Below, one piece after another: positions 635 through 60,705 of a stretch of 64,000 nt of DNA (the first letter of the stretch is position 1; each line of letters starts with the position of its first letter). The notes under the pieces are model-generated. The model saw nothing but the letters and a program-made list of their open reading frames with translations, had not been told where the DNA came from and made no database searches. This stretch comes from Escherichia coli (GTDB lineage: Bacteria; Pseudomonadota; Gammaproteobacteria; Enterobacterales; Enterobacteriaceae), in assembly GCF_044324785.1 (NCBI RefSeq), contig NZ_CP172127.1; one strand, given 5' to 3'. A program made the translations under genes and the position numbers.

Positions 635-741
635 CGTTTGGTACTCCTGACACACTGGTCTGGGTTGCCCTTATCGCCGGGTAGCGGAACGTGTTTCTGA
701 ACAACTGCCGCTGGGTAAGCGTTGTTGATGAAAGCGACTTT

Positions 742-790: not shown

Positions 791-884
791 TTAGGGGCAA
801 AAAAATATTCACTGTGTAAAGGTGTTTTTGTGTTAGGGGGAAAGTTGCATGCCAGCAGCGGCTGGCCTGGAAATTTGAACTGAA

Positions 885-1313: not shown

Positions 1314-1318
1314 GGTTT

Positions 1319-1376
1319 AATTGTAGGGAGCATTGCAAATATAATTTGTAATTACAGTTATGATTTGTAATGATGG
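1319..1376. promoter_or_regulatory. putative right operator / divergent promoter region
   Basis: near-palindrome ttgtaattacag plus ttgcaat and atttgtaat repeats between divergent repressor and cro-like genes. Confidence 0.45.
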
Positions 1377-1396
1377 CGCGGACACAAGGAGTCCAT

Positions 1397-1627
1397 ATGG
1401 ATAAACAACTGCAAGACAAAATTCTTTCCGTAATGAGTCAATCAGAGTTAGGTCGGCGATTAGGGAAAAAACCACAAACTGTGAGCCTCTGGTTCAAAGG
1501 ACGGGTTCCCGGTGAAGAGGTTTTGCGCACATCTGAAGCTCTTGAATGGCGCGTGACCCCTCATGATCTTAGACCGGATCTTTACCCAAACCCAGATGAC
1601 AGCTTGCCTAAAACGGAAGCAGCTTAA
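1397..1627 (+). CDS. Cro/YdaS-like HTH regulator
   Basis: AGGAG RBS then ATG at 1397; MDKQLQDKILSVMSQSELGRRLGKKPQTVSLWFKG resembles YdaS/Cro family; first rightward gene. Confidence 0.65.
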   Translation: MDKQLQDKILSVMSQSELGRRLGKKPQTVSLWFKGRVPGEEVLRTSEALEWRVTPHDLRPDLYPNPDDSLPKTEAA

Positions 1628-1685
1628 CTGTTGGTGAGCCCCAAATCTGATTAAGCGTAATCAATTTTTAGCGACAGGAGACGCT

Positions 1686-2162
1686 ATGGAAAACCCAGAG
1701 GAATTACAAAAAGAGATTTTGACCTGGGCGGCAAGGGCAGGGCAGGAACTCGTCACGATTGAAATCTGCCGGGCCTGGTTCAGTCAGGGACGCAATGATG
1801 AGTTGAGACTACATGAATTTGAGGACGCGGACGGCAACGTGGACTGGAGAGCCATCAACAACAATCGGCAGAAAATCTTTCGCTGGTTACGTGGCGAGAC
1901 AACGGCGGCGCGCCGAAAAACTCAGGTGCTGGCCAGTGTGATGAAAGCCGTGCTACCCGCAGAACGGCGTGCGCGTCTGGAGTCGCCGGGCGATCCTGTT
2001 TTGCTGGCAACGCTGGCGGCAAAAGAAGGGGTGGAAGCGATTAACGCTGTACATCTCCACTTCGCGCCAGAGATAACTATTCAGGAAATTGACGAAGCAA
2101 TAGCGGCGCTGGTAGCGACGCGAGGGGCAGTGATAAGCACTGCGCAAGGCCATCATGCATGA
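1686..2162 (+). CDS. YdaT-family (CII-like) regulator
   Basis: follows cro-like gene as in Rac ydaS-ydaT; family assignment by recollection of the sequence pattern. Confidence 0.5.
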   Translation: MENPEELQKEILTWAARAGQELVTIEICRAWFSQGRNDELRLHEFEDADGNVDWRAINNNRQKIFRWLRGETTAARRKTQVLASVMKAVLPAERRARLESPGDPVLLATLAAKEGVEAINAVHLHFAPEITIQEIDEAIAALVATRGAVISTAQGHHA

Positions 2163-2163
2163 G

Positions 2164-2204
2164 CGCCTGACCAGCGTTTAACTTATACCGAGGAAAGACC
2201 GATG
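2164..2204 (+). repeat. conserved ~40-bp intergenic motif, copy 1 (cgcctgaccagcgt..accgaggaaagacc.atg)
   Basis: near-identical to 4599..4636; each copy lies between a stop codon and the next ATG. Confidence 0.55.
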
Positions 2205-2426
2205 TTAAGACATATTGACCGCATTACCTGGCGTAACGGCTGGCACCTGAATGGACGCCCGGCACATGTTGCAGAGATCCGCCCCATATTCGATGGCCGC
2301 GTCGCAGCTGCACGTTCTGTATGGGAAAAGTACGAAGAAGAAAAAGCGAAACTGCGTGAGCAAAATCTCTCTGGCGCTGCCTATGAGGCTGGCTGTCGCG
2401 TTCTCTCAGAGGCTTTGGGCATATGA
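2202..2426 (+). CDS. hypothetical protein (74 aa)
   Basis: ORF preceded by GAGGAAAG RBS inside the conserved motif. Confidence 0.4.
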   Translation: MLRHIDRITWRNGWHLNGRPAHVAEIRPIFDGRVAAARSVWEKYEEEKAKLREQNLSGAAYEAGCRVLSEALGI

Positions 2427-3190
2427 ACATCCTCCCGTTACTTGATAGACCCATAGCCTTCCAGAGAAGTTTTATCCGTCTTGAAATTGGCGTGACTGCC
2501 GCATTGTTTCTGTCGCAGTTGACGTACTGGACAAACAGAACAACTGACGACGGCTGGGTGTATAAAACCCAGGATGAGTGGGAAGAGGAAACAGGGCTTT
2601 CACGATACGAGCAGGAGGGCGCCCGCAAAAAACTACGTGGTCTCGGCGTCTTGCTGGAACGTAAACAGGGCTTGCCTGCCAGGCTGTACTACAAAATCGA
2701 TAATGATGTGTTGTGCCAGCTACTTACGTCCGCATACAAGGATGCGGAAAAACCACATACAGGTGAGGGGAAAACCACCAGGCCTGTACGTGGAAAACCA
2801 ACAAACATTCTTACAGAGAATACAACAGAGATTACTACAGAGATTATTACTGATGGTGAATCGGCTGACGCCGACACCCAACAACCTGCCGACCAGAGAA
2901 TAAATTATCAGGTGATACTCGATACCTATCACGAGATTTTGCCAGAGATGCCACCAGTGAAAATCCTCACTGACGGCAGAAAAAAACACCTTCGCACTTT
3001 CTGGAAAAAATTCAATTTCAATGAGTCCCGTTGGCGGGCCTATCTGGAATTTATCGGTGGCAATTGTCGCTGGATGCTGGAGGACAGGCCAAATGGCAGG
3101 GGAGGATTCTGGCGGCGTAAAAATCTTGATTATCTGATTACCGAACGCTGCTACGTTTCGGTTAAGGAAGAACGCGCAAATGATAAATAA
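2423..3190 (+). CDS. phage replication initiation / replisome organizer protein
   Basis: position immediately upstream of and overlapping DnaB-like helicase; N-terminal region resembles replication organizer proteins. Confidence 0.5.
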   Translation: MNILPLLDRPIAFQRSFIRLEIGVTAALFLSQLTYWTNRTTDDGWVYKTQDEWEEETGLSRYEQEGARKKLRGLGVLLERKQGLPARLYYKIDNDVLCQLLTSAYKDAEKPHTGEGKTTRPVRGKPTNILTENTTEITTEIITDGESADADTQQPADQRINYQVILDTYHEILPEMPPVKILTDGRKKHLRTFWKKFNFNESRWRAYLEFIGGNCRWMLEDRPNGRGGFWRRKNLDYLITERCYVSVKEERANDK

Positions 3191-4595
3191 CGCGATTGCA
3201 CTGTACAGCGTTGACGCAGAACAGGCTGTTCTGGGCTGTCTGATGCTGAATACCGACCACGACAGAACCAATGCGGTATTTGCGTTACTGAAACCGGAAA
3301 CGTTTTATATCAATGCGCATCAGGTTATCTACCGGGAGATCAAAGGATTATTTCAAGCTGATAAACCAACTGACCTGATAACACTGACCGAACTGATGGA
3401 ATCGAAGGGGCTGTATGAGCGCGTGGGGGGATTCGCATACCTGGCTGAAATGAGTAAGGCGGCGATACCGGCCTCAATGGTCAACTACGCGAAAATTGTA
3501 CGTGAAAAAGCCATTCTTCGTTACGCCGTGGAAAAGTTGAATTCTTGTCTGGAGATTATGACCCAGCCTGCAGATATGACTGCTACTGACAGGATCAGCA
3601 CCGTTCAGCAAGTGATTGGACAGGTAGCTGAACATGCCCGTACCGGGCATAAGGGCGGTTTGCGTCCGGCAAGTGAAGTCGTCGATGACTGGATAGATGA
3701 CCTTGATCGCCGTTTCAATGATCCAGCACATGCAGCCGGACTAACGCTCGGAATCGAAAGCCTTGATCGCTTAATGGCACCAAAGCAGGCGTTAAGAGGC
3801 TCATTGGTCGTTATTGGTGCCCGGCCAAAAATGGGCAAGACAGCCGCGTTTAATAAAATTGCGGTGCATTTTGCTCTGAATCATCGTTTGCCGACGCTGG
3901 TATTTAGCCTGGAAATGACTGACAGAAGTCTCATTGAACGCATGGTTGCGCAGGAAGCAAAGGTCAATTCGGAGATTTTTTATCTTGGCCCTAACGATGA
4001 ATCTGAATTGAGTCTCGCAATAGCAAAGGCGGGGGAGATTGCCGAATCCAACATGATGATTGACAGCACGGCAGGCGTAACCCTTGCGCATATTGTCGCT
4101 GAATGCCGAAAGGTTAAGCGGATGCATGGCTCGGTTGGCCTGGTGGCAATTGACTATTTGACGCTGATGAAAACCGAAGCGGCAGAACGTCGGGATATTG
4201 CGTATGGCGATATCACAACCGGTTTGAAGAACCTGGCAAAAGAGCTGGATTGTGTTGTGGTCCTGCTGACGCAACTCAACCGAAAACTTGAAGAACGAGC
4301 AGATAAGCGGCCTAACCCGAGCGACAGTAAAGATACCGGGCAGATCGAACAAGATTGCGATGTCTGGATTGGCCTCTATCGTGATGCTGTTTATAACGAA
4401 AATGCCGACCCAAATCTCATGGAAATGTTGCTACGTCTGAACCGCGAAGGACCATCGGGAACAGCCTACGCCCTGATGAAAAATGGCTCAGTTATTGATA
4501 TCAGCGATGAGGAGGTTTATCGCCGTACCAACTACCGCTCAGAAAAAAATAAACGTTATTCCCGTAGCGATAATTCTCGCACAAATGAATTTTAA
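3180..4595 (+). CDS. replicative DNA helicase, DnaB family
   Basis: Walker A GARPKMGKTAA, DnaB-like N-terminal domain, 471 aa. Confidence 0.85.
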   Translation: MINNAIALYSVDAEQAVLGCLMLNTDHDRTNAVFALLKPETFYINAHQVIYREIKGLFQADKPTDLITLTELMESKGLYERVGGFAYLAEMSKAAIPASMVNYAKIVREKAILRYAVEKLNSCLEIMTQPADMTATDRISTVQQVIGQVAEHARTGHKGGLRPASEVVDDWIDDLDRRFNDPAHAAGLTLGIESLDRLMAPKQALRGSLVVIGARPKMGKTAAFNKIAVHFALNHRLPTLVFSLEMTDRSLIERMVAQEAKVNSEIFYLGPNDESELSLAIAKAGEIAESNMMIDSTAGVTLAHIVAECRKVKRMHGSVGLVAIDYLTLMKTEAAERRDIAYGDITTGLKNLAKELDCVVVLLTQLNRKLEERADKRPNPSDSKDTGQIEQDCDVWIGLYRDAVYNENADPNLMEMLLRLNREGPSGTAYALMKNGSVIDISDEEVYRRTNYRSEKNKRYSRSDNSRTNEF

Positions 4596-4598
4596 CCA

Positions 4599-4636
4599 CG
4601 CCTGACCAGCGTGAAATAACCGAGGAAAGACCAATG
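4599..4636 (+). repeat. conserved ~40-bp intergenic motif, copy 2
   Basis: matches 2164..2204 with a shorter internal spacer. Confidence 0.55.
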
Positions 4637-5044
4637 ACCACCACTCCAGGCAAATTAGAGTACCCGTCGGACAAAGGACACATAGACGACGGTAAAAACT
4701 ATCTCGACGTCATTTTGTGGAATATGAACGTCGGGCCACGTGCGCGCACTCGCGCGGTTTTTGTGCCAAGACCTAAAGCAGGCAATTTTTCAACCCCTGC
4801 TAAGCCTGCCCGTCAGGCATCCGTAGCCGCAGCGCCAGCAGTGAAACGTAAGGGCAAAACGCACACCGGGATCGCGATTCGCAGAAATGGTGAGCGGCAA
4901 GTAAAACTCCACGAAACAGCGACAACCTGGTGTGCTTCACCGCATGAAACTTACGACAAGATAACCGGGCAGCGCATTGGTGCGCCTGGTCGCTGTCGCC
5001 TGCTGTTGAGTTCCATCACTCCGATAGCAAAGAAAGGGGCGTGA
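4634..5044 (+). CDS. hypothetical protein (136 aa), basic C-terminal half
   Basis: ORF with RBS in conserved motif. Confidence 0.45.
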   Translation: MTTTPGKLEYPSDKGHIDDGKNYLDVILWNMNVGPRARTRAVFVPRPKAGNFSTPAKPARQASVAAAPAVKRKGKTHTGIAIRRNGERQVKLHETATTWCASPHETYDKITGQRIGAPGRCRLLLSSITPIAKKGA

Positions 5045-5045
5045 T

Positions 5046-5282
5046 ATGGCCGGGCAATCAGATTACCTGCCGCCCGGCTTACCACACAACCGCGCCAAAT
5101 GGCCCCAGGAATACCAGCTTAAAGAGCACTACGACATGCGAGCGGCGACGCTGATCCGCCAACTCTTTGAGAAACGTATTCCGAGGGGAAGCGTGATTGA
5201 GCAAATCGGAATGACGCCGGATACGTACCGGGAATTTTTCAGAGAGCGTCTGAACTACTGGAGAGGGGTGATGGAGCAATGA
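5046..5282 (+). CDS. hypothetical protein (78 aa)
   Basis: tightly packed with neighbours in same orientation. Confidence 0.4.
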   Translation: MAGQSDYLPPGLPHNRAKWPQEYQLKEHYDMRAATLIRQLFEKRIPRGSVIEQIGMTPDTYREFFRERLNYWRGVMEQ

Positions 5283-5590
5283 AATACAAACGGTGGGTGC
5301 GTGCGGAAGTCGTAATCATCAAACAATGTGCGGGCAGCATGACAGTTGAACGTATAGGGCAGCTTATTGGAAGAACCGGTGCAGCGGTACGCACAAAAGC
5401 GCGCGAGCTGAAAATCTGTATGTATCTGCGGGGTAATTATCACCAGTCAGCAAAATACTGCCAGGAGGATATCGAGCTGGCAAGGGAATTACATCAGTCG
5501 GGTATTAATCGCCAGGATATCGCAGAAAAACTCGAAATGCCGATCGGAGCGGTGAATCAGTTTGTTTATTTTGAGCGGAGGATTTCATGA
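5279..5590 (+). CDS. hypothetical protein, possible HTH DNA-binding (103 aa)
   Basis: overlapping start/stop with neighbours; two HTH-like segments. Confidence 0.4.
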   Translation: MKYKRWVRAEVVIIKQCAGSMTVERIGQLIGRTGAAVRTKARELKICMYLRGNYHQSAKYCQEDIELARELHQSGINRQDIAEKLEMPIGAVNQFVYFERRIS

Positions 5591-5811
5591 AAGAACTTTT
5601 TCTGGCATTTGTGCCCCGGTTTATTAATGACCAGATCGCACTGACTGATAATGGTGAACAATATGAAATTGCCTGCAGCATGGTGGATGTGAATCCGGGC
5701 GAACGGTATGACGCGATGTGTGACCTGAAAATATTCACCTGGCTGGGTTGGGCCATTCCGTGTGGAGAACCAACAAATATTCGCCCGTTTGAGGGCAGGG
5801 AGGCTGTATGA
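5587..5811 (+). CDS. hypothetical protein (74 aa)
   Basis: ORF; stop overlaps a further 38-aa Cys-containing small ORF starting at about 5808. Confidence 0.4.
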   Translation: MKELFLAFVPRFINDQIALTDNGEQYEIACSMVDVNPGERYDAMCDLKIFTWLGWAIPCGEPTNIRPFEGREAV

Positions 5812-5998
5812 GTGAATTGAAAATACGTCGCAAGGCAATAGCACGCGTTAAAAATCCATTACCAGTGCCCGCCGAATGCCATTTTTGTGGTGGGAATGTA
5901 CGGATTGGTACGTATGTATGGTGATTGCGGAGTGACGTAAAACGAATCGTTGTGGGTGTAATATCGTCAATATCATTGGTTTCCCGGAGGGAAAGGAC

Positions 5999-6220
5999 AT
6001 GTTTGGCGATAAACTGGAGTTACCACGGAACGGGCGGATAGTGCTCTATATTTCAGATTACAAAGTAACCAGGGCTGAGGTGTTGGAACCGGAAAAACAT
6101 CTGGTCACGTTACCGGACATTATTGAGTTGTATAAGCGGGTCGGATATGTGGACTTGCATCGCGATGATGTTCCCGTTGAGTGTATGGAATGTGAACACC
6201 GGAGGTTTGAAGTTGATTGA
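5999..6220 (+). CDS. hypothetical protein (73 aa)
   Basis: ORF with GGAGG RBS. Confidence 0.4.
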   Translation: MFGDKLELPRNGRIVLYISDYKVTRAEVLEPEKHLVTLPDIIELYKRVGYVDLHRDDVPVECMECEHRRFEVD

Positions 6221-6312
6221 ATTGACTTAGAAAAAGCCCGGGGCTATAGTTTCCGCGCAGCCGCAAAATCGGTTGCCGGGATTGGCGTCCCGGATATCTA
6301 AGTGACGCATAG

Positions 6313-6331
6313 CCGCGTTAGCGGTTTTTTT
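6313..6331 (+). terminator. putative intrinsic terminator
   Basis: ccgcgttagcgg hairpin followed by a T7 run. Confidence 0.45.
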
Positions 6332-6444
6332 ATGTGTTAGGCACGGCCACATTCGCATTATGGTGGGCTGTGTGGGGGCTTCTGCGGAAGCGCCGGGTTC
6401 ACTTAGCCGGTTACGCCAACCCTGCACAGTTCACCACCAGATGA

Positions 6445-7137
6445 TTGGCGTCGCTGGTGGTGATGAAAAAAACACTAAGTGAGGCCACTGCGATGACAAT
6501 CCAAATATCTGCGGAATCCCTTTCTCCGCTACATCATAACCAACTTCCCGTCATCACTACTGAATTGCTTGCCAGTTTGTATGGCACGGAAGTAAATGGT
6601 ATCCAGCAAAACTTCAAGCGCAACATCGCCAGATTTGTCGTAGGAAAGCATTTTTTTAAGCTGGAAGGTAATGAATTACGCGACTTCAAAAACAGACTGA
6701 CAGATAGTCAGTCAGTTGCTAAACATACCCGATCCCTCATTCTCTGGACAGAACGCGGCGCAGCTCGCCATGCCAAAATGCTGGAAACAGAACAGGCCTG
6801 GGAAGTTTTCGAAAAGCTGGAAGATTGTTATTTTAGCCAGCGTCCAGAGAGGCGGAGTACAACTACCGATGACCGTACTCCCTTACGTGATGCCGTTAAT
6901 ATGCTGGTCGGTAAGAAAGGCATGATGTATCCCGATGCCTACACCATGATTCATCAACGCTTCGCCGTCTCTCACATAGAACAACTGTCACAGACGCAAA
7001 TGTTAGAGGCGATTGAATACATCCACTGCCTGCTACTCGATGAAAATCAACCAACCATTCCAGATCACCACTATCAAAAATGGAAAAGTGACCAGAATGC
7101 GCCATGTTGCCAAAGGCGAACATCTGATGACCTTTGA
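6445..7137 (+). CDS. antirepressor-like protein with ORF6N-type N-terminal domain
   Basis: ELLASLYGTEVNGIQQNFKRNIARFVVGKHFFKLEGNELRDF pattern; C-terminal 30 aa look unnatural, possible frameshift into 7013..7270. Confidence 0.5.
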   Translation: MASLVVMKKTLSEATAMTIQISAESLSPLHHNQLPVITTELLASLYGTEVNGIQQNFKRNIARFVVGKHFFKLEGNELRDFKNRLTDSQSVAKHTRSLILWTERGAARHAKMLETEQAWEVFEKLEDCYFSQRPERRSTTTDDRTPLRDAVNMLVGKKGMMYPDAYTMIHQRFAVSHIEQLSQTQMLEAIEYIHCLLLDENQPTIPDHHYQKWKSDQNAPCCQRRTSDDL

Positions 7138-7270
7138 CGCTTTCAAAGAGATCGCTGAGCGGGCAGGGTATCTGGTGATCCACAGCGACAATCTGCGAAG
7201 TATGACACTGGATAAATTGATGGTAATGGGGAAAAAGTCTGCTGTATCCGTTGCTGATTCAGCATTTTGA
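7013..7270 (+). CDS. possible C-terminal continuation of antirepressor in +1 frame, or separate small gene
   Basis: protein-like ORF overlapping the 3' end of 6445..7137 in another frame. Confidence 0.3.
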   Translation: MNTSTACYSMKINQPFQITTIKNGKVTRMRHVAKGEHLMTFDAFKEIAERAGYLVIHSDNLRSMTLDKLMVMGKKSAVSVADSAF

Positions 7271-7300
7271 CAGGTTGAATGTTTGGCGCGGTTATACTCT

Positions 7301-7377
7301 ATTTGCGCTTAAAAAGGTATTTAGTCACAACCAGCACGAGGCCGAATACTCTGTCAAAGTACCGCCCATGTAAAACT
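7301..7377. repeat. direct repeat copy A (~77 bp), degenerate copy of the 3' end of gene 10899..11504
   Basis: about 92 percent identical to 10901..10978 with a 1-nt indel. Confidence 0.8.
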
Positions 7378-7447
7378 GTAACGTATGTACTTGATGACTA
7401 AGCTGGCACCAGGTTAACACCAGGCGCCAGCTTGAAGGAAACTTCAG

Positions 7448-8371
7448 TTATTGGTTTCTGAGGAAAGCGATTCTTGAAAGGGTCATTTGCGTCTGGCAGT
7501 CGACCATTTTCTTGACTTCAGCATCTGTTCCCTGCATTGAAACTTTACCGCACATAGCATCCTTAGTTTTGATCCACTGACGCTGAGAAGGCAGCAAATC
7601 TTTTTTCTTCGCCGGGGTTAACTTGCTCCAGACGGTACTCAAATCAGAGTCGGCATTCGCAAATGCCATTCGGGACTGATCAAGGCTGTCAGCTTTTTGT
7701 GGCTGAAGTTGTGCCTGTCTCTCTATTTGCTTCTCCGCCTCATACTTAGCCTGTTCCTGCGCCCTGAGTTGCACCTGTTGTTCCGCTTCAATTTGGCTCT
7801 GTTGGGCATCCTTAGCCTGCTGGATTTTCTGCTGCTCAACGATCGGGTTGATAATAGAAAGTGATGTCAGTAAAGCGGCGCCCACTGATATCGGATTATC
7901 AGAAGAGGTTTTTACAAAAACGTTTTTCTGATCGTCGGTCGCCTGCACGGTGTAGGTGATACGTTTGGAAAAGGCGTTTGCGTTGTTCTCCAAAAACAGG
8001 CTTTCCATTTGCTTGTCGAGATTACGATTAAAATTCTTTCTGTAATCATCAGAAAGCTGGACGTATTCGTTCGCAGGTAGAGTCATCGTCACGGTCCCTT
8101 CACAAGTTTTCATTGTGCTGCCCGTGTCACTTGATGTTGTGGAGATTTCAGAGATGGCTAGTTTGATCTTGTCCAATGTGCTTCGTTTGGTCTGATTAGT
8201 GACATCAGGGTATTTATCGACCTGTTCAGAGAGTCCTTCATAAGCAGATTTTTTTAATAAATCCATAAGCGCTGACTGGGTTATTTCCGAAGAACAACCG
8301 ATCACATCTTTTTTGTTATCACAGCCTGTAAGGGCAATGGCGAGTAAGAGTACTGAGTATTTTAATCTCAT
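7448..8371 (-). CDS. lipoprotein with C-terminal DUF1311 (LprI-like) domain
   Basis: lipobox LTGC after signal peptide; Gln-rich coiled coil; C-terminal QRQWIKTKDAMCG...DCQTQMTLSRIAFL pattern. Confidence 0.55.
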   Translation of the reverse strand: MRLKYSVLLLAIALTGCDNKKDVIGCSSEITQSALMDLLKKSAYEGLSEQVDKYPDVTNQTKRSTLDKIKLAISEISTTSSDTGSTMKTCEGTVTMTLPANEYVQLSDDYRKNFNRNLDKQMESLFLENNANAFSKRITYTVQATDDQKNVFVKTSSDNPISVGAALLTSLSIINPIVEQQKIQQAKDAQQSQIEAEQQVQLRAQEQAKYEAEKQIERQAQLQPQKADSLDQSRMAFANADSDLSTVWSKLTPAKKKDLLPSQRQWIKTKDAMCGKVSMQGTDAEVKKMVDCQTQMTLSRIAFLRNQ

Positions 8372-8996
8372 GAATTCCCTTTAGAGTAAGGATTGGTTTT
8401 TAAGACGCGGTCTGTAATCAGTTCCGAGAGCTACAGTAAACAACGCTGAGCACTGAACGCATCACAGGCAAGGTAAAGGCGATATCGGCAAAGGCTGTGA
8501 AACCTTTAATTCAACAGATGGAAACGGTATGCGCAGGATCCTGTAACGACGCTCCCAAAACCGGAAACCTGTAAGGCATGTTTTCGCTGCTGAACTTAAT
8601 ATACGAACCTGCACTATCATGAACATATTTTATATCGTTATACCCCGAGTGATTGTGCCCGGCAATGGATAGTGTCCTGGAGGAACTATTTCTACTGTAA
8701 AAGGTAGACATTTAATTTCAGTGTGGAATTATTCCCTGCTGTTAATAACCATGGCTCTATATGGCACCGAGCGGACTAGTTAACTTGCCTGAAAGCCGCT
8801 ATGAGTGAGGAGCGAATATTGGCACGAGAGGATACCTGAACCATTTTTTGGACATGCGCTAAAAGCGAATGATTAGTTTTATCGGAATATTTACAGTATA
8901 CTTACAAGGCAAGCTTGGCGTGCCGTCTTGGGCGAGATTGCTTAAATTATTTTGTGGATATATCATTCAAACAAAAGATAATAAAATGAGGTTGTT

Positions 8997-9194
8997 ATGT
9001 CATATATTCGCGTAGAGAAAGATGGCCTTCAGTATGAAGCAGAATACTTCCGTAAAGAGGATATGGTCACAGTCTTTGGGGTTAGAGGAGGGCATTCCAG
9101 CGTGGTTCTAAATGGAATGACAGAAGTCGCGGCTGCTCGTACTGCGTTACGAAATCTTATTAGAGAAAATCAGGTTGATCCTCTAACTGATTAA
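8997..9194 (+). CDS. hypothetical small protein (65 aa)
   Basis: ORF in AT-rich island, GAGG RBS. Confidence 0.4.
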   Translation: MSYIRVEKDGLQYEAEYFRKEDMVTVFGVRGGHSSVVLNGMTEVAAARTALRNLIRENQVDPLTD

Positions 9195-9398
9195 AAATAA
9201 GCCATCTTAACTGAGAGCATATTTTGATATAATTTAGATTAAATCTATTTTGAAGGTTAGTTTGGGATGAGAAGATTACATCAAAACCGTTATTACTAGC
9301 AATAAGTTGTGTAAATCAAATAATACATAATCATGTGGTAACATATACTAAGCGTAGTAAAGTTTTTATATATTCCTGTAACTTTGTGAGAAACTTCC

Positions 9399-10064
9399 AT
9401 GAAAGCCGACAACTTAAGAATTATAGAGAATGGCAAATATGTTTTCGATATGTTCTTGGATACTGGTGAATTTTACTATACAAGTCATGCCTTTGACACG
9501 AGAGAAGATGCAAAAAGCTGGATGGAAGAATGGCAGATTTGGGCAAATAATGTATCGAGTGGGAAAGTAAGTAGTATTTATTATATTTTACAAGTGCCTG
9601 ATACTTGGGCCGGTTCTTCAGATAAAAATAACCCTTACTCGGGACTTTATGTGAAAATAGGGCGTTCCAATAATGTGCTAAAAAGGTTGTCTAACCTGCA
9701 GACAGGTGCATTTGGTCAATTAATATTACACGCTTTGGAACCTGGTGGTTCAGAAAAAGAAAACTATCTTCATGAAAAATTTAGCAACGAAAGACGTCAA
9801 GGTGAATGGTTTGTTTGTACTAAGGAACTTACCAAGCATATATTTACAACATGGTTTAAAAACAAAATGCTCCCACCAGAACATCAAATAAAAATAATGC
9901 AGCTCGCAGAAAGAATAGGTATTTATTCGCATGTTCATACACTAATGGGGGGGAAGCCAGACTTAGTAAACCCATCTATTAGTGAACCTTGGGAATGCGA
10001 AAAATATGTTTTGGTTGATATGATTTATAGCTCTTTAGCAAAGCAAGTTAATCATAAAAAATAA
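9399..10064 (+). CDS. T5orf172 (MUG113, GIY-YIG-like) domain protein
   Basis: YVKIGRSNNVLKRLSNLQTG ... LHEKFSNERRQGEWF matches the T5orf172 signature; unknown flanking regions. Confidence 0.6.
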   Translation: MKADNLRIIENGKYVFDMFLDTGEFYYTSHAFDTREDAKSWMEEWQIWANNVSSGKVSSIYYILQVPDTWAGSSDKNNPYSGLYVKIGRSNNVLKRLSNLQTGAFGQLILHALEPGGSEKENYLHEKFSNERRQGEWFVCTKELTKHIFTTWFKNKMLPPEHQIKIMQLAERIGIYSHVHTLMGGKPDLVNPSISEPWECEKYVLVDMIYSSLAKQVNHKK

Positions 10065-10384
10065 AGTGTTACATTTTAACCATACAATTATTGATTCACT
10101 AATGAAGAGGTGATTTAAACGTATGAAGTTTTAATAAGCTCCAAGAATATTTTGTCATACATGGGTTAAAGAGTTATATAATAATATCTGCTTCTGGAAT
10201 ACAGCAGACAAGCACCTGCAGATAAAGGTCTGCTGAGAGCGAGAAGCGGATCATACGTTGGAAGTTGTTTAGGCAAATACGTTATAAACGTATTTGATTA
10301 AATTTACTTGGATCATAGTCTTCAATAACGCTTTATTATATTGTTTTTCATGCAGCAAACAGGTTTACAGGTAGGTAATAAGCT

Positions 10385-10789
10385 ATGAGTGGATGGAAAG
10401 AGTCTTTTACATTAGCAGAACAGATACAATTAGCATTAAATTTAGGTTATGAGGCTGTACCAGATGAAGAGGCATATACTGGGGCATACTTCATTAAAGG
10501 TGGTAAGAAGTGGATCTTTAACATCATCGGTCTCAAAAAGACATTGAATATATCTTCAGATGATGAACTAAGAGGGCAGGATTATGATGTTGATATGTAT
10601 TTCGAAATTCGCCAAAATTGGGCACAATACCAAGATATGATCTTTGGAAGCGAAGATATCACTCCTTCACCTAAAAATGAACTTACTTCAATTTACCATG
10701 ACCTGCAGGTAACGGATGAACCCAGGGAAATGGTGTATCTTTCTGATGGGATGTGGCTGGATCCCAACGGACGAATTGTACAACGATAG
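10385..10789 (+). CDS. hypothetical protein (134 aa)
   Basis: ORF in AT-rich island with long AT-rich leader. Confidence 0.4.
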   Translation: MSGWKESFTLAEQIQLALNLGYEAVPDEEAYTGAYFIKGGKKWIFNIIGLKKTLNISSDDELRGQDYDVDMYFEIRQNWAQYQDMIFGSEDITPSPKNELTSIYHDLQVTDEPREMVYLSDGMWLDPNGRIVQR

Positions 10790-10898: not shown

Positions 10899-11504
10899 TT
10901 ACTTGCGTTTAAAAAGGTATTTTGTCACGACCAGCACGAGGCCGAATACCTCTGTCAAAGTACCGCCCATGTACAACTGGAGCGTTAAGTCTTTAAATAC
11001 AAGCCATTCAGCACCAGTGGCAAAAAATACACCATTCATTATCAAAAGCTGGCAAGCAAGGATAATAAGGAACCATTTGCCATAGCGTTTTTTTAGATCG
11101 ATTTCAGCTTCAAAATCTTTGTTGTTGAGTTGTTTGCGCTCATGCTCAGTATCAAGTGAATTCACCTGTTTCACAGATGTGAACTCGGTCAAGATTTTAC
11201 TCTCAGTACGGGTGACTTGTTGAGAGGGGGTAGGAATTGGAATTCTTTTGATTGACGCAGCTACAGCCATTTTGCGAGCTTCGGCAGCTCTTTTTCTGGC
11301 TATTCCGTGAATACGGGCAGACGGTTTTTTTGGAGCATGCGAAACCTTTGTCTGAGGTGAAGTTTCGTCAGGAGACTGAACCGGAGTTTCATCCTCCTCC
11401 GGCTCAACCTCTTCTGCTAACTGACGGTGTAGGTTGAGGGAATCCTTCAGTCGGCGTGCAACTTCCTGTTTGAAACGGCTGTTAAAATCGTCATCCGATG
11501 GCAT
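10899..11504 (-). CDS. membrane-anchored protein (charged N-terminal region, two C-terminal TM helices), partner of ImmA-like peptidase
   Basis: start 9 nt after peptidase stop, RBS inside peptidase 3' end; hydrophobic segments WFLIILACQLLIMNGVFFATGA and LVLVVTKYLF. Confidence 0.55.
   Translation of the reverse strand: MPSDDDFNSRFKQEVARRLKDSLNLHRQLAEEVEPEEDETPVQSPDETSPQTKVSHAPKKPSARIHGIARKRAAEARKMAVAASIKRIPIPTPSQQVTRTESKILTEFTSVKQVNSLDTEHERKQLNNKDFEAEIDLKKRYGKWFLIILACQLLIMNGVFFATGAEWLVFKDLTLQLYMGGTLTEVFGLVLVVTKYLFKRK
10901..10978. repeat. direct repeat copy B (~78 bp), coding for the C-terminus of 10899..11504
   Basis: pairs with 7301..7377. Confidence 0.8.
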
Positions 11505-14903: not shown

Positions 14904-15574
14904 TGAGTAACGAGTATTTGTTGGAATATACCCGCATAAAACTGCGCGCTGCATTGCGGGATTTGTCTGGTGGTTCTAAGGGGCAGCTGGAAGCATTGTG
15001 TGAGCACCCGCCGGCAGACAAAAACGCATATCCACGCAAACATATTCATCGTGTGCAACTGGAGGACCGGACCGTTGATGCTCTGGTTACGCCAGTTTAC
15101 GCCCTGGAAAGTTTCAGCAGACGTCGTCCCGCGCCGCCGATGAATGATTTTGAATTCGCTGATTCATCGTGGCGCCGCGCCGTGAATTCGCTCGACGTTA
15201 GCCAGCAGGCGTGGTTGCGCTATTGCTACGGTGGTCACCTGGCGTTCAAACACCAAACAGCTATTTGTGAGGCTGTCTGGAGTCGCTATAAAGGACACAT
15301 CCCCGCGTCAACTCAGAGAAAAGTAGCTAAGCGCCTGCTTTCGTTGGTGTGGTTGTCCGTGCAGGCGGTTGCAGCAGCAAATAAACGCGAGGATTTTAAG
15401 GAGATGGCTGGATCTGCGCTAGCTGGAATGTTGTCTGTTTCTCGTTCCACCTGGTGCGAAACATACTCCCCGCACTGGGTAGGAATGAAAGAGGCGGTGA
15501 GAGCACTTGATGAAATGGCACTTCTTGCAACTTTGCATCATTATCAAAACCATTTAGACGACGTTTGCGTATAA
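14903..15574 (+). CDS. late-gene antitermination protein Q-like
   Basis: position between nin-like genes and the late promoter/lysis cassette; 223 aa. Confidence 0.5.
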   Translation: MSNEYLLEYTRIKLRAALRDLSGGSKGQLEALCEHPPADKNAYPRKHIHRVQLEDRTVDALVTPVYALESFSRRRPAPPMNDFEFADSSWRRAVNSLDVSQQAWLRYCYGGHLAFKHQTAICEAVWSRYKGHIPASTQRKVAKRLLSLVWLSVQAVAAANKREDFKEMAGSALAGMLSVSRSTWCETYSPHWVGMKEAVRALDEMALLATLHHYQNHLDDVCV

Positions 15575-15577
15575 TGC

Positions 15578-15606
15578 TTGCAAAACCGAACAAAACAGGC
15601 CATATT
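15578..15606 (+). promoter_or_regulatory. putative late promoter (PR'-like)
   Basis: ttgcaa, 17-bp spacer, catatt immediately after Q stop. Confidence 0.35.
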
Positions 15607-15642
15607 AAACGCTAATTTGGTATGTTGCCAAATTTCTAAGAA

Positions 15643-15671
15643 CCTCGCCACGGCGGGGTTTTGTCGTTTCT
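15643..15671 (+). terminator. putative tR'-like terminator downstream of late promoter
   Basis: cctcgcc..ggcgggg hairpin followed by ttttgtcgttt. Confidence 0.45.
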
Positions 15672-15935
15672 GAATCAGGAAAAATCATGTCTGAACCTCT
15701 AACCGCTGGCGTTGCTGCTGGCTCGGCGGGGGTGACGTTTGCTGCGTTATTTCCTGAGGCAACACCTGCAGTGATGATCTGTGCGCTGGCAGGCGCAGCT
15801 CTCTATGTGTTGTCGTCCGGGCAGCATCGATTCTGGAAGCAGGTTAGACTGGCCCCCTGAATCTCCAGACAACCAATATCACTTAAATAAGTGATAGTCT
15901 TAATACTAGTTTTTAGACTAGTCATTGGAGAGCAG

Positions 15936-16301
15936 ATGATTGATGTCTTAGGACCGGAGAAACGCAGACGGCGTACTACACAGGAAAAGATCGCTATTGT
16001 TCAGCAGAGTTTTGAACCGGGAATGACGGTCTCCCTTGTTGCCCGGCAACACGGTGTGGCAGCCAGCCAGTTATTTCTCTGGCGCAAGCAATACCAGGAG
16101 GGAAGTCTTACTGCTGTGGCCGCAGGAGAGCAGGTCGTTCCTGCCTCTGAACTTGCTGCTGCCATGAAGCAGATTAAAGAACTCCAGCGCCTGCTCGGCA
16201 AAAAAACGATGGAAAATGAACTCCTTAAAGAAGCCGTTGAATACGGGCGTGCAAAAAAGTGGATAGCGCACGCGCCCTTATTGCCCGGGGATGGGGAGTA
16301 A
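15936..16301 (+). CDS. insC: IS2 transposase OrfA (InsC)
   Basis: [53 protein letters not shown]. Confidence 0.9.
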
Positions 16302-17164
16302 GCTTAGTCAGCCGTTGTCTCCGGGTGTCGCGTGCGCAGTTGCACGTAATTCTCAGACGAACCGATGACTGGAAAGATGGTCGCCGCAGCCGTCACTCAG
16401 ATGATACGGATGTGCTTCTCCGTATACACCATGTTATCGGAGAGCTGCCCACGTATGGTTATCGTCGGGTATGGGCGCTGCTTCGCAGACAGGCCGAACT
16501 TGATGGTATGCCTGCGATCAATGCCAAACGTGTTTACCGGATCATGCGCCAGAATGCGCTGTTGCTTGAGCGAAAAACCGCTGTACCGCCATCGAAACGG
16601 GCACATACTGGCAAAGTGGCCGTGAAAGAAAGCAATCAACGATGGTGCTCTGACGGGTTCGAGTTCCGCTGTGATAACGGAGAAAAACTGCGAGTCACGT
16701 TCGCGCTGGACTGCTGTGACCGTGAGGCACTGCACTGGGCAGTCACTACGGGCGGCTTCGACAGTGAAACAGTACAGGACGTAATGCTGGGAGCGGTGGA
16801 ACGCCGCTTCGGCAACGAGCTTCCGGCGTCTCCAGTAGAGTGGCTGACGGATAATGGTTCATGCTACCGGGCTAATGAAACACGGCAGTTTGCCCGGATG
16901 TTGGGGCTTGAACCGAAGAACACGGCGGTGCGGAGTCCGGAGAGTAACGGCATAGCAGAGAGCTTCGTGAAAACGATAAAGCGTGACTACATCAGTATCA
17001 TGCCTAAACCAGACGGGTTAACGGCAGCAAAGAACCTTGCAGAGGCGTTCGAGCATTATAACGAATGGCATCCGCATAGTGCACTGGGTTATCGCTCGCC
17101 ACGGGAATATCTGCGGCAGCAGGCCAGTAATGGGTTAAGTGATAACAGGTGTCTGGAAATATAG
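16259..17164 (+). CDS. insD: IS2 transposase OrfB (InsD)
   Basis: 301-aa DDE transposase overlapping insC in -1 frame. Confidence 0.9.
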
Positions 17165-17405
17165 GGGCAAATCCACAGGTTATTTTCGCACTCATTTCGT
17201 TTGTTGGCGGTGTGTATTGCGCTGAGACAGCATCAGCCATCATTACCGGTATTCTGAACGCGGTGCTGAGTCACCTGAACCCTCCCGTAACAGTAAAAGT
17301 CTCTCCCGCCATTGGTGCACTGGTTGCATCAGTAATCAGCGTTACATCACTGTTGCGGATCATGTCACAAGCTCGTTTATGGAAATCAGATAAGGGGATG
17401 AAATA

Positions 17406-40821: not shown

Positions 40822-42648
40822 ATGGCAATAATATCGGGTGTATACGCAAATGGGGTCGGCGAGCCCGTTGTCGGCGTTCAGTTAGTATTAACAGCACGGG
40901 TCACGAGTTCACGCGTAGTAATGACCACTGTTGTAGAGCAAGAAACAGGCGCGGCGGGTGAGTACAAATTTGATATGAAGCCCGGAGTTTACGTTGTCAC
41001 TGCTAGTGCGGCATATCTCGGCGTGATTAACGTTAACCCGGACAGTGTTGACGGCACGTTAAACGACTATTTGACTAATTTTAGCGCAGACGAACTGACG
41101 CCAGCTGCGTTGGCGGAGATCCAGGAACTCGTTGCCACAGCACAAGCCGCTGCCAGTGTTGCCAGCGCCGCCGCAACGGAGGCCAGGCAGAATGCCGCCG
41201 CCGCCGCTGCTGCTGCGCAGATTTCGACGGCAGCGGCAGGGAGCGCCAGATTTGAGAATTTTGACGAAATTATCAATGTCAATACAACAGCAATGCTGGA
41301 GCTGGAAAAACCGGAGGTGTTAGATCCGGATATTGCAATAACTATCACAGAGACGATTAATTATAACTATATTGGCCCGGTAAACGGATTTTGCGACGTT
41401 ACTAGCCCGCTTGAATATAAAATTCAAATGTACGCCTACACAACAGGCGAATATTTTAACGGCGAAACAAATTTAACAGCGGACGGGAAGTTTTCTTTTA
41501 AACGTTCCTGGGCTGGTGCAAAACAATTCAGATTGGTGCGCGTAGCAGATAGTAAATGGATCACTACGCTGGAATACCCGCTGTGTATTCGCAGTTACTG
41601 GATGCCCGCTGACGCCGATCCCGAGGTAGTCAGCGTCATGAAAGACCGTTGCTACACATATGATCAGGCGTGCGCGGCGCTGGCTCTCATGGCGCAGAAT
41701 CACGAGGCGGTAGAGCGTTATGTTACGGGTCTGTGCGCCCTGGTGGGTGAAAACGGCGGCATTAAATTTTTTGTTAACCGGCTGTCCGCACAGTCCTCCC
41801 GCGAATATTACCGCACGGGTAACGCGGCGTGGGTGTTGTACGCCCTGGCATTCTATCTGAGCAAATACCCTACCGGCAGTAACGCTGAGTTAGCGCGCGC
41901 GAAATTAAACGCCGGGCTAACCTGGCTGGACGGTCTGAAGGTTGACGCCAGCGGCGACCCGCGCCACGGCTTATACATGGGCGGCAACGGTAAATATCTG
42001 GAGGACGGATCATTTGATCCGAATTATGTTGCGACCTGGTGCGCGCTCGAGCACAACGTTGATATTTATTTTTTATTCGAACTCGTTGGACGGTTAACCG
42101 ATTTTACCGGATACGAACTGCGAGCCACCACGCTGGCTGCAAATATCGTGGAAAAATTCTGGATTGAGAGCGAGGGGCGATTCCGGCAGGGCGTGCACAT
42201 TGACGGCCCGGACAACGCCGCAGCGCTGGATCAATCGAGTTGGGGCGGGATATTCGCAGTAAAAGCCGCGCCGGAGTTGGCGGAAAAATGCCGCCGTTAT
42301 ATGGAAAGATTCCGGTTCGGCACACTGGAGAGCACCGGTTATACACCGTATCACCCGGACTACGGATACAGCGGCCATAGCCGTGGCGTGTGGACCGAGG
42401 GTACAGCGGGTGTAGCACTATTCGAACGTGCGCTAGGGAACGAGCAGAGAGCTACCGATCTGATCGCGGGATTAAAACCACTGCGTAATGAATACGGCTA
42501 TCGCGACTCATGCGACGATAAAAAATACGACACACTGCCGGACTGGCCGTCGACTACAAACACCGCTTGGGTTATTTTAACATGCAAGCCGGCGGGGTTT
42601 TGGTGCGTAGATTTCCCGGTATTGGACGTTGGTATCGTCAGGTACTGA
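40822..42648 (+). CDS. side-tail-fibre-like N-terminal domain fused to putative (alpha/alpha)6 glycoside-hydrolase-like domain
   Basis: N-terminal ~100 aa parallel lambda Stf N-terminus; Ala-rich linker; ~400-aa C-terminal domain with glycosidase-like character. Confidence 0.5.
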   Translation: MAIISGVYANGVGEPVVGVQLVLTARVTSSRVVMTTVVEQETGAAGEYKFDMKPGVYVVTASAAYLGVINVNPDSVDGTLNDYLTNFSADELTPAALAEIQELVATAQAAASVASAAATEARQNAAAAAAAAQISTAAAGSARFENFDEIINVNTTAMLELEKPEVLDPDIAITITETINYNYIGPVNGFCDVTSPLEYKIQMYAYTTGEYFNGETNLTADGKFSFKRSWAGAKQFRLVRVADSKWITTLEYPLCIRSYWMPADADPEVVSVMKDRCYTYDQACAALALMAQNHEAVERYVTGLCALVGENGGIKFFVNRLSAQSSREYYRTGNAAWVLYALAFYLSKYPTGSNAELARAKLNAGLTWLDGLKVDASGDPRHGLYMGGNGKYLEDGSFDPNYVATWCALEHNVDIYFLFELVGRLTDFTGYELRATTLAANIVEKFWIESEGRFRQGVHIDGPDNAAALDQSSWGGIFAVKAAPELAEKCRRYMERFRFGTLESTGYTPYHPDYGYSGHSRGVWTEGTAGVALFERALGNEQRATDLIAGLKPLRNEYGYRDSCDDKKYDTLPDWPSTTNTAWVILTCKPAGFWCVDFPVLDVGIVRY

Positions 42649-42676
42649 CAATTATAATTTTTGGAGTTTTTTATAC

Positions 42677-43096
42677 ATGGTCGTTAAAAATATTCTTGCC
42701 TTTGGGATTATGTGTGCGCTTGCTGGTTGTGCAACCAAGCCAGTCTCAAACGAGCAGGCTACTCCCGTTCCAGAAAAACAGGTAATCAATAGCGCAATAC
42801 TCGAAAAAAGAGATGGGACAGGAGAGGTGATCATCAAGCGTGATTCGGGTTTCTTTGGGAGCGCGTGCTTTTCCCGTGTTTATGTTGATGGTAAAGAGGT
42901 GGCAGATTTAGGTACAGCTCAGAAAGTCGTTGTATACCCAACGATTGGTGATCATGTCTTCAGCGCGTGGCCAAAAGGAGTATGTGGTGGTGGCATGAGT
43001 GAGCAGGCGGGCAAGGTGACAACAGATCGTACTTTGATGTATCGCATAGGTTACGGTTCAAACGGTGAATATGGCATTCACCCAACTGCGTTTTAA
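42677..43096 (+). CDS. lipoprotein (about 139 aa from internal ATG), prophage-end cargo
   Basis: GGAG RBS then MVVKNILAFGIMCALAGCATK with lipobox; last gene before att. Confidence 0.5.
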   Translation: MVVKNILAFGIMCALAGCATKPVSNEQATPVPEKQVINSAILEKRDGTGEVIIKRDSGFFGSACFSRVYVDGKEVADLGTAQKVVVYPTIGDHVFSAWPKGVCGGGMSEQAGKVTTDRTLMYRIGYGSNGEYGIHPTAF

Positions 43097-43253
43097 CTGT
43101 GTTGGGTATGCGATTTTATTCGCATACCCCTTAGGGCAATTGACGATACTTCCAAATGACCATTATTTTACGTGTGGCCTCGATGTTGCGCACATGAGAG
43201 TTCTATATTCTTTCAAACAGGATTATCCCATTGATTTAATTATACTTTCGTAT

Positions 43254-43314
43254 GGTCTCGAAAACCGGAGTAGGGGCAACTCTACCGGGGGTTCAAATCC
43301 CCCTCTCTCCGCCA
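43254..43314 (+). other. 3' fragment of tRNA-Ser (anticodon CGA; anticodon loop to CCA), putative prophage attachment-site remnant
   Basis: ggtctcgaaaaccggagtaggggcaactctaccgggggttcaaatccccctctctccgcca matches the 3' part of a serU-type tRNA-Ser; 5' acceptor/D-arm absent. Confidence 0.6.
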
Positions 43315-43983
43315 CTTTATCAATGACTTATCTCCCGACTTCCCGCCTTGCTTTTCCTAAACAGAACAATCGTAGAATATTCTTGAAGGGTTAGATCGTC
43401 ACTGTTTTCTGTTCGATACTGTGACATTCAGCACTTGATTCGCTATGGATCTGACAGGAAGGTTTCGAGCGAAAATCTGCAGTTATTCAGTCGTTTTCTT
43501 ATCGCTCACCATTATTCTTTTAGACATTCATCCTATGAAACTGCCGCAAAGTTGGTGGTGGGAACTGAAGTTGCGTAGAGAAGGGGGCAATAATTGAGCC
43601 AAAAAAGGAACGCGGCCGTCAGATTAAAGCCGCGGGACAAAGTCCATAATTTCCAAGAGTTGTTGAATTTCCCAGCTTTTTTGAAAGCCTTTGTATCATA
43701 CTAACAAGTAAAAAAGGTTTAAATACCAAAATTAACCTATATTTCTGGTTAGCTTTACCATGACAGATGACTTGCTTCTGGAGACATTGGCGCTGCCAGT
43801 CTGTATTGGTGAGTTGTGTATTTATTGTTCGCCGCTTTCTCGGTTTTTTTCTACAGACATAATAAAAAAGACACGTCTCAAGCATGAGCGTGTCTGAGTT
43901 TGTTTTATTTATTTGTCTTGGTAAATTATTGTCGTTACTACCAGGCACTGTTCTGTTAAATAATTGAAGTCAGCGCAAAAAAA

Positions 43984-44634
43984 TCAATGAGACATCATCT
44001 CCTCGACCACTTCTTCGCTACTCAACTGATAGGGATAATACGTTGGCCAGTTTTCCATTTCATTTAATAAAGATTGCTGTGAATCATTACCCATAAAAAT
44101 GTGAAAATGAGATGATTTTCGTGGTGCAATTATATGATCGCTAAATTGAATATATTTAGGGGCTTTGCTTTCAGGATCTTTACATTCGAATAAGTAACGA
44201 ACGCCTTTCTTGCCTGATTTATAGGTGAGTATTTTGTATCCATCATAATCATATTTACAGGATGTTGTTTCATTATTTCTATGGAATTCAACAATGCCGT
44301 CCTCAATGCCAATCATCTCGATATCTGTCACATAACCTTTGCGATAATAATCTTTAATTTCAGCAAATGTTTTAGTTTTATCTGCATCCGCTTTCTTCTG
44401 AAAGACGGGGTCAAGTTTGCCACTTTGCAGTAAAGGATAAACGGATTGCCAGACTCCATCCCAGTCACTGAGCGTTCGGTTTTGTACATTGGCATCATCA
44501 AAAACACCATTAGCAGCTTTTTGTTCGACCTCTGTTAAGGGTTTGCCGTGTGAGTGATGACCATGCGAAAAGGCAGGAGCGCTAACAATAAAGACACCTA
44601 AAGCAACAGCCAGTTTATGAAGACGAATCGCCAA
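43984..44634 (-). CDS. zinT: zinc/cadmium-binding periplasmic protein ZinT
   Basis: 216 aa; signal peptide then HGHHSHG. Confidence 0.85.
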
Positions 44635-44670
44635 AACAGTTTCCTCCAGAGTTAATGTATATGATGTGTA

Positions 44671-44687
44671 ATGTTATATTGTAACAT
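44671..44687. promoter_or_regulatory. putative Zur box in zinT promoter
   Basis: atgtta-tattg-taacat imperfect palindrome about 40 bp upstream of zinT. Confidence 0.45.
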
Positions 44688-44821
44688 ATAACAAAATGCA
44701 ACAACTCTTAGGAGACAAGAGAATAGTTATCTCAGGTGTGCTTATCTATCTTATTGAAATAAAATAAATTATGTCGATGATTTGAGGTTGATGACAAACG
44801 AAACATAACTTGATGTGATCT

Positions 44822-44858
44822 GCGTAGGCCGGATAGGGCGCTCGCGCCGCATCCGGCA
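44822..44858. repeat. REP (repetitive extragenic palindromic) element
   Basis: gcgtaggccggatagggcgctcgcgccgcatccggca. Confidence 0.6.
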
Positions 44859-44890
44859 GGGATAACGCGTACTTTGTCGGCAATATGAAG

Positions 44891-45526
44891 TTATACAGAT
44901 AATTTGTTGTGAACCTGCTTGCGTAACCGGTTAAAAAGGGAACGCAACTTCTTATACCGTAAGGCTAAAAGCAGTACAGCCAGCCCAGCGTAGATGAGTG
45001 GCTGCGGTGAAATAATCTTCACTGACCACAGATAATGTACTGGGGCAAGGATCGCGACAAGATAGACGAAGTTATGCAACTGTTGCCAGTTTTTGCCGAG
45101 TTTTCGCTGCATCGCCTGGGTTGAAGTGAACGCTAAAGCAAGCAAAATTATCCAGCTGATAATACCTAACGTTAAATAAGGCCGGGTAATTAACTCCTTG
45201 CCTAATAACGCCAGATTATTCACGCCCAGCTCCAGTAATGCGTAACTGGTTAAATGCAGTGTCGCCCAGGCAAAGCACCATAAGCCTAACAGGCGGCGAG
45301 TGCGTATCAATAACGGCTGTTTTGCGTAGCGTGCCAGAGGTGTGATTAACAAGGTCGCCAGCAAAAATTTCAGTGCAGTGCGACCAGTAAAATGCTGAAT
45401 ATCTTTCACCGGATCGGCACCCAATCCACCGTGATTAATCGCCCAGACCAGCCAGAGAAACGGCAACAATCCGGCAAGATGCAGGCAAACTTTCAGCCAT
45501 GTCACCTGTTTTGCTGTCAGACGCAT
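44891..45526 (-). CDS. msrQ: methionine sulfoxide reductase heme-binding subunit MsrQ
   Basis: 211-aa polytopic membrane protein adjacent to msrP. Confidence 0.9.
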
Positions 45527-51881: not shown

Positions 51882-52447
51882 TATGTATTCCCTTGTGATT
51901 ATAATCTTCATGAATATATCAATAAGTGCCGTTATCCAAAAAAAAGCACATTTGGATACTATTCTATGAAGTTCATTTTATTTTAAGGATTACATGTAAC
52001 AAATGTATTTAAAAGATTTCAAAATGTTTCTAATCTATTTAATATAATTCAGAATTATGAATTCTAGATATAAATATTCATGATAATTATGAATATATAT
52101 CAATATGTTATGAGTTGATTGGAAAGATAGGAAGTATCAATGATTGCGGCGCTAAACGGCTGATGTGATCACGCGCACATTAATGAAGGCATAAAAAAAA
52201 GCCGGCATCATGCCGGCCCAAAAAATATAAACAAGACGATAAAAGGCTAATAACGGGGTTATCATGACACAGAAATCAAAAAAGGTATAATTGAATTCGC
52301 TGCTAATATATTGTTTAGGTGAATTAATAAAACCATTACCATAGATAATAATAAATCTTCATTGCTGTTTTTCCGGTAATTATTGCCGTTGCGCAAAAAT
52401 TATCTATTTGTTCAAAAAATGATTGAGTCTTGACTGGCTCATCCAAT

Positions 52448-60618: not shown

Positions 60619-60705
60619 AACACATCAGATTTCCTGGTGTAACGAATTTTTTAAGTGCTTCTTGCTTAAGCAAGTTTCATCCCGACCCCCTCAGGGTCGG
60701 GATTT
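60619..60705 (+). ncRNA. dsrA: small regulatory RNA DsrA
   Basis: aacacatcagatttcctggtgtaacgaattttttaagtgcttcttgcttaagcaagtttcatcccgaccccctcagggtcgggattt matches DsrA including its terminator hairpin. Confidence 0.9.

Follow-up and report, generated by a model that had tools for sequence, protein, structure and literature searches.

In the scheme that Williams reportedly set out in 2002, tyrosine integrases act on tRNA genes and the anticodon loop is one sublocation of integration. In E. coli and Salmonella, the tRNA-Ser gene serU is well documented as an insertion hotspot of prophages and islands, and several STEC studies list it as a site of a prophage, an Stx phage or an island. Elements described at this site include PP_SE11-6 of E. 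coli SE11, a prophage of 47.6 kb with a 77-nt duplication (Oshima et al. 2008, PMC2608844, Table 2), ST64B, reported to insert into serU (PMC10100743), and SerU-LTIIb (KU052038.1), for which GenBank annotates a partial (pseudo) tRNA-Ser at the right end, beside yodB. Here we analyse a stretch of 64,000 nucleotides from E. coli (RefSeq assembly GCF_044324785.1, contig NZ_CP172127.1), hereafter the window, which holds a junction of the same kind: at a probability of roughly 95%, we read positions 43254-43330 as the attR of a temperate phage of ~48.9 kb integrated in serU of the E. coli chromosome.

The junction is marked by an incomplete tRNA gene. Positions 43254-43314 on the plus strand (GGTCTCGAAAACCGGAGTAGGGGCAACTCTACCGGGGGTTCAAATCCCCCTCTCTCCGCCA) match nt 30-90 of the 90-nt tRNA-Ser(CGA) gene serU at 61 of 61 positions, the intact references being those of strain 1190, K-12 and locus L007, a contig locus described below. 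With the anticodon placed by ARAGORN at nt 35-37 of serU, the fragment opens with the final 3 nt on the 5' side of the anticodon stem, takes in the anticodon loop, variable arm, T-arm and 3' acceptor strand, and ends at CCA. Nucleotides 1-29, which form the 5' acceptor strand and D-arm, are absent, and alignment to serU of strain 1190 leaves unrelated phage sequence upstream of 43254. This agrees to the base with the sequence-only reading of the locus, which had described a tRNA-Ser present from its CGA anticodon loop to the CCA end and lacking the 5' acceptor and D-arm. No tRNA is reported by ARAGORN for any part of the window, and no tRNA family is matched in an Rfam search of 42000-45000 at E<=1; an antisense match to the family 'Plastid-psbl-rps4' in the same interval scored 40.9 bits, below its gathering cut-off of 68, and was set aside as a chance or derived resemblance to tRNA-Ser-like sequence. 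For lack of a paired acceptor stem and a D-arm, the fragment forms no complete cloverleaf; it is without tRNA function and is not a functional gene. A search for the 61-mer that tolerated up to 3 mismatches gave a single match in the window and none in 100 shuffles, and because no second copy is found in the window at that tolerance, the left att site must lie outside it.

The repeat that defines the attachment site is longer than the coordinates first given for the tRNA fragment. The att core spans 77 bp (43254-43330, plus strand), consisting of the 61 nt of tRNA and 16 bp downstream (CTTTATCAATGACTTA), and is a direct repeat of the attL core; copies that agree with it at 77 of 77 positions are found in the contig loci L007 (at 16235-16311), L008 and L009. 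A related prophage in APEC20/16 is bounded at both ends by an exact 77-bp direct repeat, the left copy inside an intact serU beside a tyrosine integrase and the right copy a partial tRNA beside yodB and zinT. In L007 and APEC20/16, then, the repeat of the opposite end lies inside an intact tRNA gene, in both cases in DNA beyond the window, and the window itself supplies an identical host tRNA 3' segment stripped of its 5' part. All four junction types (attB, attL, attR and attP) were recovered, and the arms of the first three combine exactly as expected: attB (K-12, strain 1190) reads tRNA 5' part, core, chromosome; attL (L007, L004) reads tRNA 5' part, core, phage integrase arm; and attR (the window, L005) reads phage tail-fibre arm, core, chromosome. 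Phage DNA thus stands on one side of the core and syntenic chromosome on the other, and the unoccupied site exists both in K-12 and in the prophage-free strain 1190, where an intact tRNA-Ser lies between mtfA and zinT as an empty attB. The right prophage boundary can be set to the base, phage DNA ending at 43253 and the core running from 43254 to 43330. The core was found at 7167 places in 5426 records, with up to 4 per genome, so the serU site is often occupied; the particular right-arm junction of the window is shared by 21 complete genomes.

Where, then, is the other end of the prophage? Draft contigs nearly identical to the window were found by exact-protein look-ups, and on one of these, CATRGX010000003.1 (GCA_958309045.1), locus L007 shows 0 mismatches to window 1-10634 and locus L019 shows 2 mismatches to window 30822-52648 (99.99% identity). 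Leftwards, L007 continues with YdfE_N, Gp157 and DUF4224 genes, a 342-aa integrase, an intact tRNA-Ser(CGA), mtfA, tRNA-Asn (asnT) and yeeJ. Transferred from L007 to window-relative positions, the integrase gene would lie at -5530 to -4502, the attL core at -5676 to -5600 and intact serU at -5705 to -5616, which places the left boundary, integrase and intact tRNA gene at a predicted ~5.6 kb upstream of the window start and gives, by the same reckoning, 48,853 bp of DNA between the two 77-bp cores. The integrase, a PF00589 protein, stands 69 bp from the attL core and is followed by the DUF4224 gene. An integrase and a second core were both sought in the window and not found there, so a single prophage spans both junctions.

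The sequence-only reading had taken the fragment to be the displaced att copy of a tRNA-integrated prophage whose intact tRNA and integrase lie beyond the window start, and had suggested looking upstream for both. On CATRGX010000003.1 they are present, ~5.6 kb upstream; the far end of the prophage does carry a matching repeat, identical at 77 of 77 positions and contained in an intact tRNA-Ser, with the integrase adjoining. Judged by sequence identity, the source genome is a very close relative of GCA_958309045.1 and not that assembly itself, given its additional IS2 and 1-4 SNPs; its left end would correspond to that of its relatives, the source genome being identical to no contig examined. 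None of the complete E. coli genomes of the collection combines the exact window junction with the yodB-less allele described below: the best match, JNE151685, has the same right arm but carries yodB. Two further loci, L012 and L013, share the gene order and were rejected as proxies at only ~98% identity.

The arrangement seen in L007 has one competitor that deserves some weight, which is that the window prophage forms part of a tandem array. Another serU-integrated element would then lie to its left, the intact serU would be more than one prophage away, and the repeat at the integrase would be a hybrid phage-phage junction. Locus L008 (GCA_019158855.2) provides an actual example: it matches window 1-10634 at 100% identity, its companion locus L020 reaches 99.99% over window 30822-52648, and at L008 16130-16507 the integrase arm leads through the 77-bp core into the tail-fibre arm of a second prophage of MLI121/SerU-LTIIb type, with no intact tRNA within the 20-kb locus. 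The occurrence of the core up to 4 times in one genome points the same way. In L007 and L009, however, intact serU stands directly beside the integrase, and L007 is the representative of 20 further similar places. We consider a tandem arrangement in the source genome unlikely, though it deserves to be kept in mind, and it would be a variant of the main explanation, in which the fragment at 43254 is still the attR of the window prophage.

With attR as its right end, the prophage fills window positions 1-43253 (plus strand) with its right ~43 kb, as read from the annotation of the APEC20/16 homologue and from gene calls and Pfam matches in L007 and L019; the left ~5.6 kb, with the integrase, DUF4224, Gp157 and YdfE_N genes, lies outside the window. 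The content is that of a lambdoid immunity region, replication genes, a Q region, lysis genes, a lambda-like head and a P2/Mu-like contractile tail, and the annotation of the homologous prophage in APEC20/16 names the immunity region, replication genes, Q, holins, terminase, portal, capsid, baseplate, sheath and tube. Phage vB_EcoM-705R4 covers 84% of the window prophage at 92% identity. Towards the right end, a 608-aa tail fibre gene (40822-42648, plus strand) carries the N-terminal prophage tail fibre domain PF08400 (E=5e-25) and is followed by the last phage gene before attR, an open reading frame of 139 aa (42677-43096, plus strand) whose translation has a lipoprotein-like N-terminus. A Pfam search with this 139-aa protein returned no family. 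An identical protein is encoded at the attR end of unrelated serU prophages that have J-type siphovirus tail tips (loci L011 and L014-L018); the reading frame looks like a mobile module tied to this att site and is a candidate for cargo, or a 'moron'.

An IS2 copy of 1331 bp (15845-17175, plus strand), whose inverted-repeat ends and 5-bp target duplication CAGGT can be read directly, sits ~160 bp into the gene that matches the APEC20/16 'putative holin', as mapped with the holin coding sequence of L004, and its insertion there may impair lysis. Together, the element and its duplication make up the extra 1336 bp of the window relative to CATRGX010000003.1. The size of the prophage is about 48.9 kb, or about 47.6 kb without IS2. 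We also observed an isrK / C4 antisense RNA with its a1b1 target, a P1/P7-type immunity RNA module, at 6244-6441 (three Rfam matches above their gathering scores), with an ORF6N-domain, antirepressor-like gene directly downstream (6445-7137). The prophage early region holds a 50-nt direct repeat with 92% identity between copies at 7300-7349 and 10900-10949, 3.6 kb apart, the second of which overlaps the 3' end of an open reading frame on the minus strand (10899-11504).

On the other side of the core the DNA is chromosomal. From 43254 on, the window matches many E. coli chromosomes in one piece at ~99%, through zinT and into the zinT-msrQ spacer, where the query ended. On this side of the prophage the nearest chromosomal gene is zinT, encoding the metal-binding protein ZinT (43984-44634, minus strand; identified by its open reading frame, the RefSeq annotation and a PF09223 match on the L019 gene), and the measured gap of 669 bp between the tRNA fragment and zinT confirms the earlier estimate of ~670 bp. 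Beyond zinT, L019 carries msrQP, hiuH, hprRS, hchA and a porin gene in the same order as annotated chromosomes. As further features of this side, the zinT-msrQ spacer contains a REP-like element (44827-44892) that matches naRNA4 below threshold, and two chromosomal sRNA genes, rseX and DsrA, were identified at 52194-52283 and 60619-60705.

This continuity bears on a second alternative, in which the core would be a fossil att relic inside phage DNA integrated elsewhere and no true prophage boundary. Such relics do occur, since the free phage genomes ev099, PhiR70_1 and mEp332 carry the same core, and in ev099 the core comes with 262 bp of chromosomal flank at ~2.4 kb from a lambda-type integrase gene. 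In the window, though, the chromosomal match does not stop at ~260 bp and runs on at ~99% through zinT into the spacer beyond; L019, at 99.99% identity to the window, goes on with the chromosomal gene order as far as the porin gene; and the window lacks an integrase. An unbroken stretch of at least 9 kb of syntenic core chromosome contradicts this alternative, which we regard as highly improbable.

The relics themselves merit description. In ev099 (NC_049953.1 24565-24903; L025 3001-3339), the right arm of another phage is joined to the 77-bp core and the 262 bp of E. coli flank, and an AraC-family gene and IS2 remnants occupy the ~2.4 kb up to the integrase gene. PhiR70_1 (L024) has the same junction and flank, and in mEp332 the match is to the core only. 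We had considered the cores of ev099, PhiR70_1 and mEp332 as possible attP sites and rejected this for ev099, which was examined in full: the ev099 integrase aligns end to end with lambda Int and is only 23% identical to that of the window prophage, and the core is followed by chromosomal flank. By this arrangement the ev099 core is best described as a fossil attR and not as an attP, and the junction speaks for a past capture of a prophage-chromosome boundary. It is conceivable, if doubtful, that the attR-proximal module is a recombination hotspot at which phage lineages sharing the site exchange cargo and chromosomal DNA, a notion that arises because attR with ~260 bp of flank has been captured in ev099 and PhiR70_1 (and probably mEp332), and because the identical lipoprotein-like gene recurs in unrelated serU prophages.

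The DNA between attR and zinT (43331-43983, no strand) represents a yodB-less allele, as delimited by blastn against L001, L003 and L005. Positions 43331-43761 are common to strains with yodB and the match resumes from 43984; the 222 bp at 43762-43983 stand in place of a yodB segment of ~995 bp. Of 5426 complete E. coli genomes, 2291 (42%) carry this allele, which also accompanies the unoccupied serU of the prophage-free strain 1190, and the right arm of the window phage is found beside chromosomes that retain yodB as well, for example in JNE151685 and APEC20/16. The absence of yodB is thus independent of the prophage: it is a common host polymorphism and not damage caused by integration. The sequence-only reading was right that yodB and mtfA are missing here, yodB by virtue of this allele and mtfA simply because it lies outside the window, beyond the prophage. 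Its statement that both genes lie between zinT and serU in K-12 holds for yodB and fails for mtfA, which lies beyond serU, the order in MG1655 being zinT-yodB-serU(-)-mtfA-asnT-yeeJ. A tRNA pseudogene left by deletion or rearrangement of serU, with no part played by site-specific recombination, might be suspected from the nearby loss of yodB, but it has next to no chance of being correct, given that the breakpoint is the to-the-base limit of attP/attB identity common to many independent prophages and free phages, that the yodB-less allele coexists with intact serU in strain 1190 and is carried by so large a share of genomes, and that a 77-bp repeat at the other prophage end contradicts it.

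We return to the reading of the core as attR, for which the integrase supplies a mechanism. The L007 integrase, with its PF00589 domain, can be aligned with solved structures of the lambda Int catalytic domain. With its counterparts in ST64B, the Citrobacter phage Chris1, the Klebsiella phage KpF5 and vB_EcoM-606R7 it shares 55-62% identity, and it belongs to the ST64B subfamily, with 55% identity to ST64B Sb28, 59-62% to Chris1 and 606R7, and a shared HDLKAKGISDY box. The DUF4224 protein encoded beside it shares 42% identity with Sb29, which is annotated in ST64B as an excisionase; an NCBIfam search gave no named family for either the integrase or the DUF4224 protein. A separate observation concerns the active site: in ST64B-type integrases, a Lys within the HDLKAKGISDY box occupies the place of the lambda Int catalytic Arg311, in 4 of 4 aligned members, and the residues aligned with lambda Arg212, Lys235, His308, His333 and Tyr342 are kept (L007 integrase, 15137-16162).

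In ST64B, Chris1 and 606R7, the three whose flanks were examined, a tRNA-Ser(CGA) 3' segment begins, like the core of the window, at GGTCTCGAAAACC and lies near the integrase gene, and match coordinates from the phage search place a tRNA-Ser segment likewise close to the integrase gene in KpF5, P7641 and others. The ST64B and Chris1 records are circular phage genomes, so the segment there is attP, and free phages thus carry beside int the tRNA 3' segment expected of an attP core. The 606R7 record is a partial prophage whose integrase gene lies beside an intact tRNA-Ser and mtfA, an attL-type junction.

These elements can be assembled into a course of integration. On this reading the attP of the window phage carries a 77-bp copy of host sequence, namely nt 30-90 of the tRNA and the 16 bp downstream, and the ST64B-type tyrosine integrase recombines it with serU. 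The phage-borne 3' segment rebuilds an intact and functional serU at attL, beside int, and the other 3' copy, without its 5' third, is moved to the opposite prophage end, where it adjoins zinT and the chromosome that originally followed serU. As with other tyrosine integrases that target tRNA genes, strand exchange would take place in or near the anticodon loop, the crossover itself not being readable within identical 77-bp repeats. The fragment would serve as the recombination partner of attL in excision mediated by Int and excisionase, and the window copy of the prophage may still be able to excise.

How does the locus compare with the elements described before? PP_SE11-6 shares the serU site, its 77-nt duplication equals the repeat of the window (a 77-nt duplication at serU is likewise found in L007 and APEC20/16), and its 47.6 kb match the window prophage minus IS2; the SE11 chromosome matches the phage right arm of the window and zinT at this locus. 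It differs in that SE11 retains yodB beside attR and in an identity of ~96.5%, a figure that refers to the shared right arm and flank only. SerU-LTIIb has, with its partial tRNA-Ser, a 77-bp core identical to that of the window and the chromosomal flank in common with it, whereas it is another phage with another right arm (side tail fibres and LT-IIb toxin genes), has yodB present, and extends the identity with serU by one base, to 78 bp.

ST64B (NC_004313) resembles the window prophage in its integration module, with Sb28 55% identical to the integrase over 95% of its length, Sb29 42% identical to the DUF4224 protein, and a tRNA-Ser(CGA) 3' segment that likewise begins at GGTCTCGAAAACC, immediately 3' of int. 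Both pair lambda-like heads with a contractile tail. ST64B differs in its host and in the serU allele, the two agreeing at 84% over a match of 63 bp, with differences that fall in the variable arm and T-arm. Set against the Williams scheme, the locus shows no material difference: identity opens in the 5' strand of the anticodon stem and extends beyond the tRNA 3' end, an intact gene is restored next to int, and the partial 3' copy ends up on the opposite side of the prophage. The attR at serU adds nothing new to biology and is useful for annotation; it is already known, as a known kind of feature at a known site.
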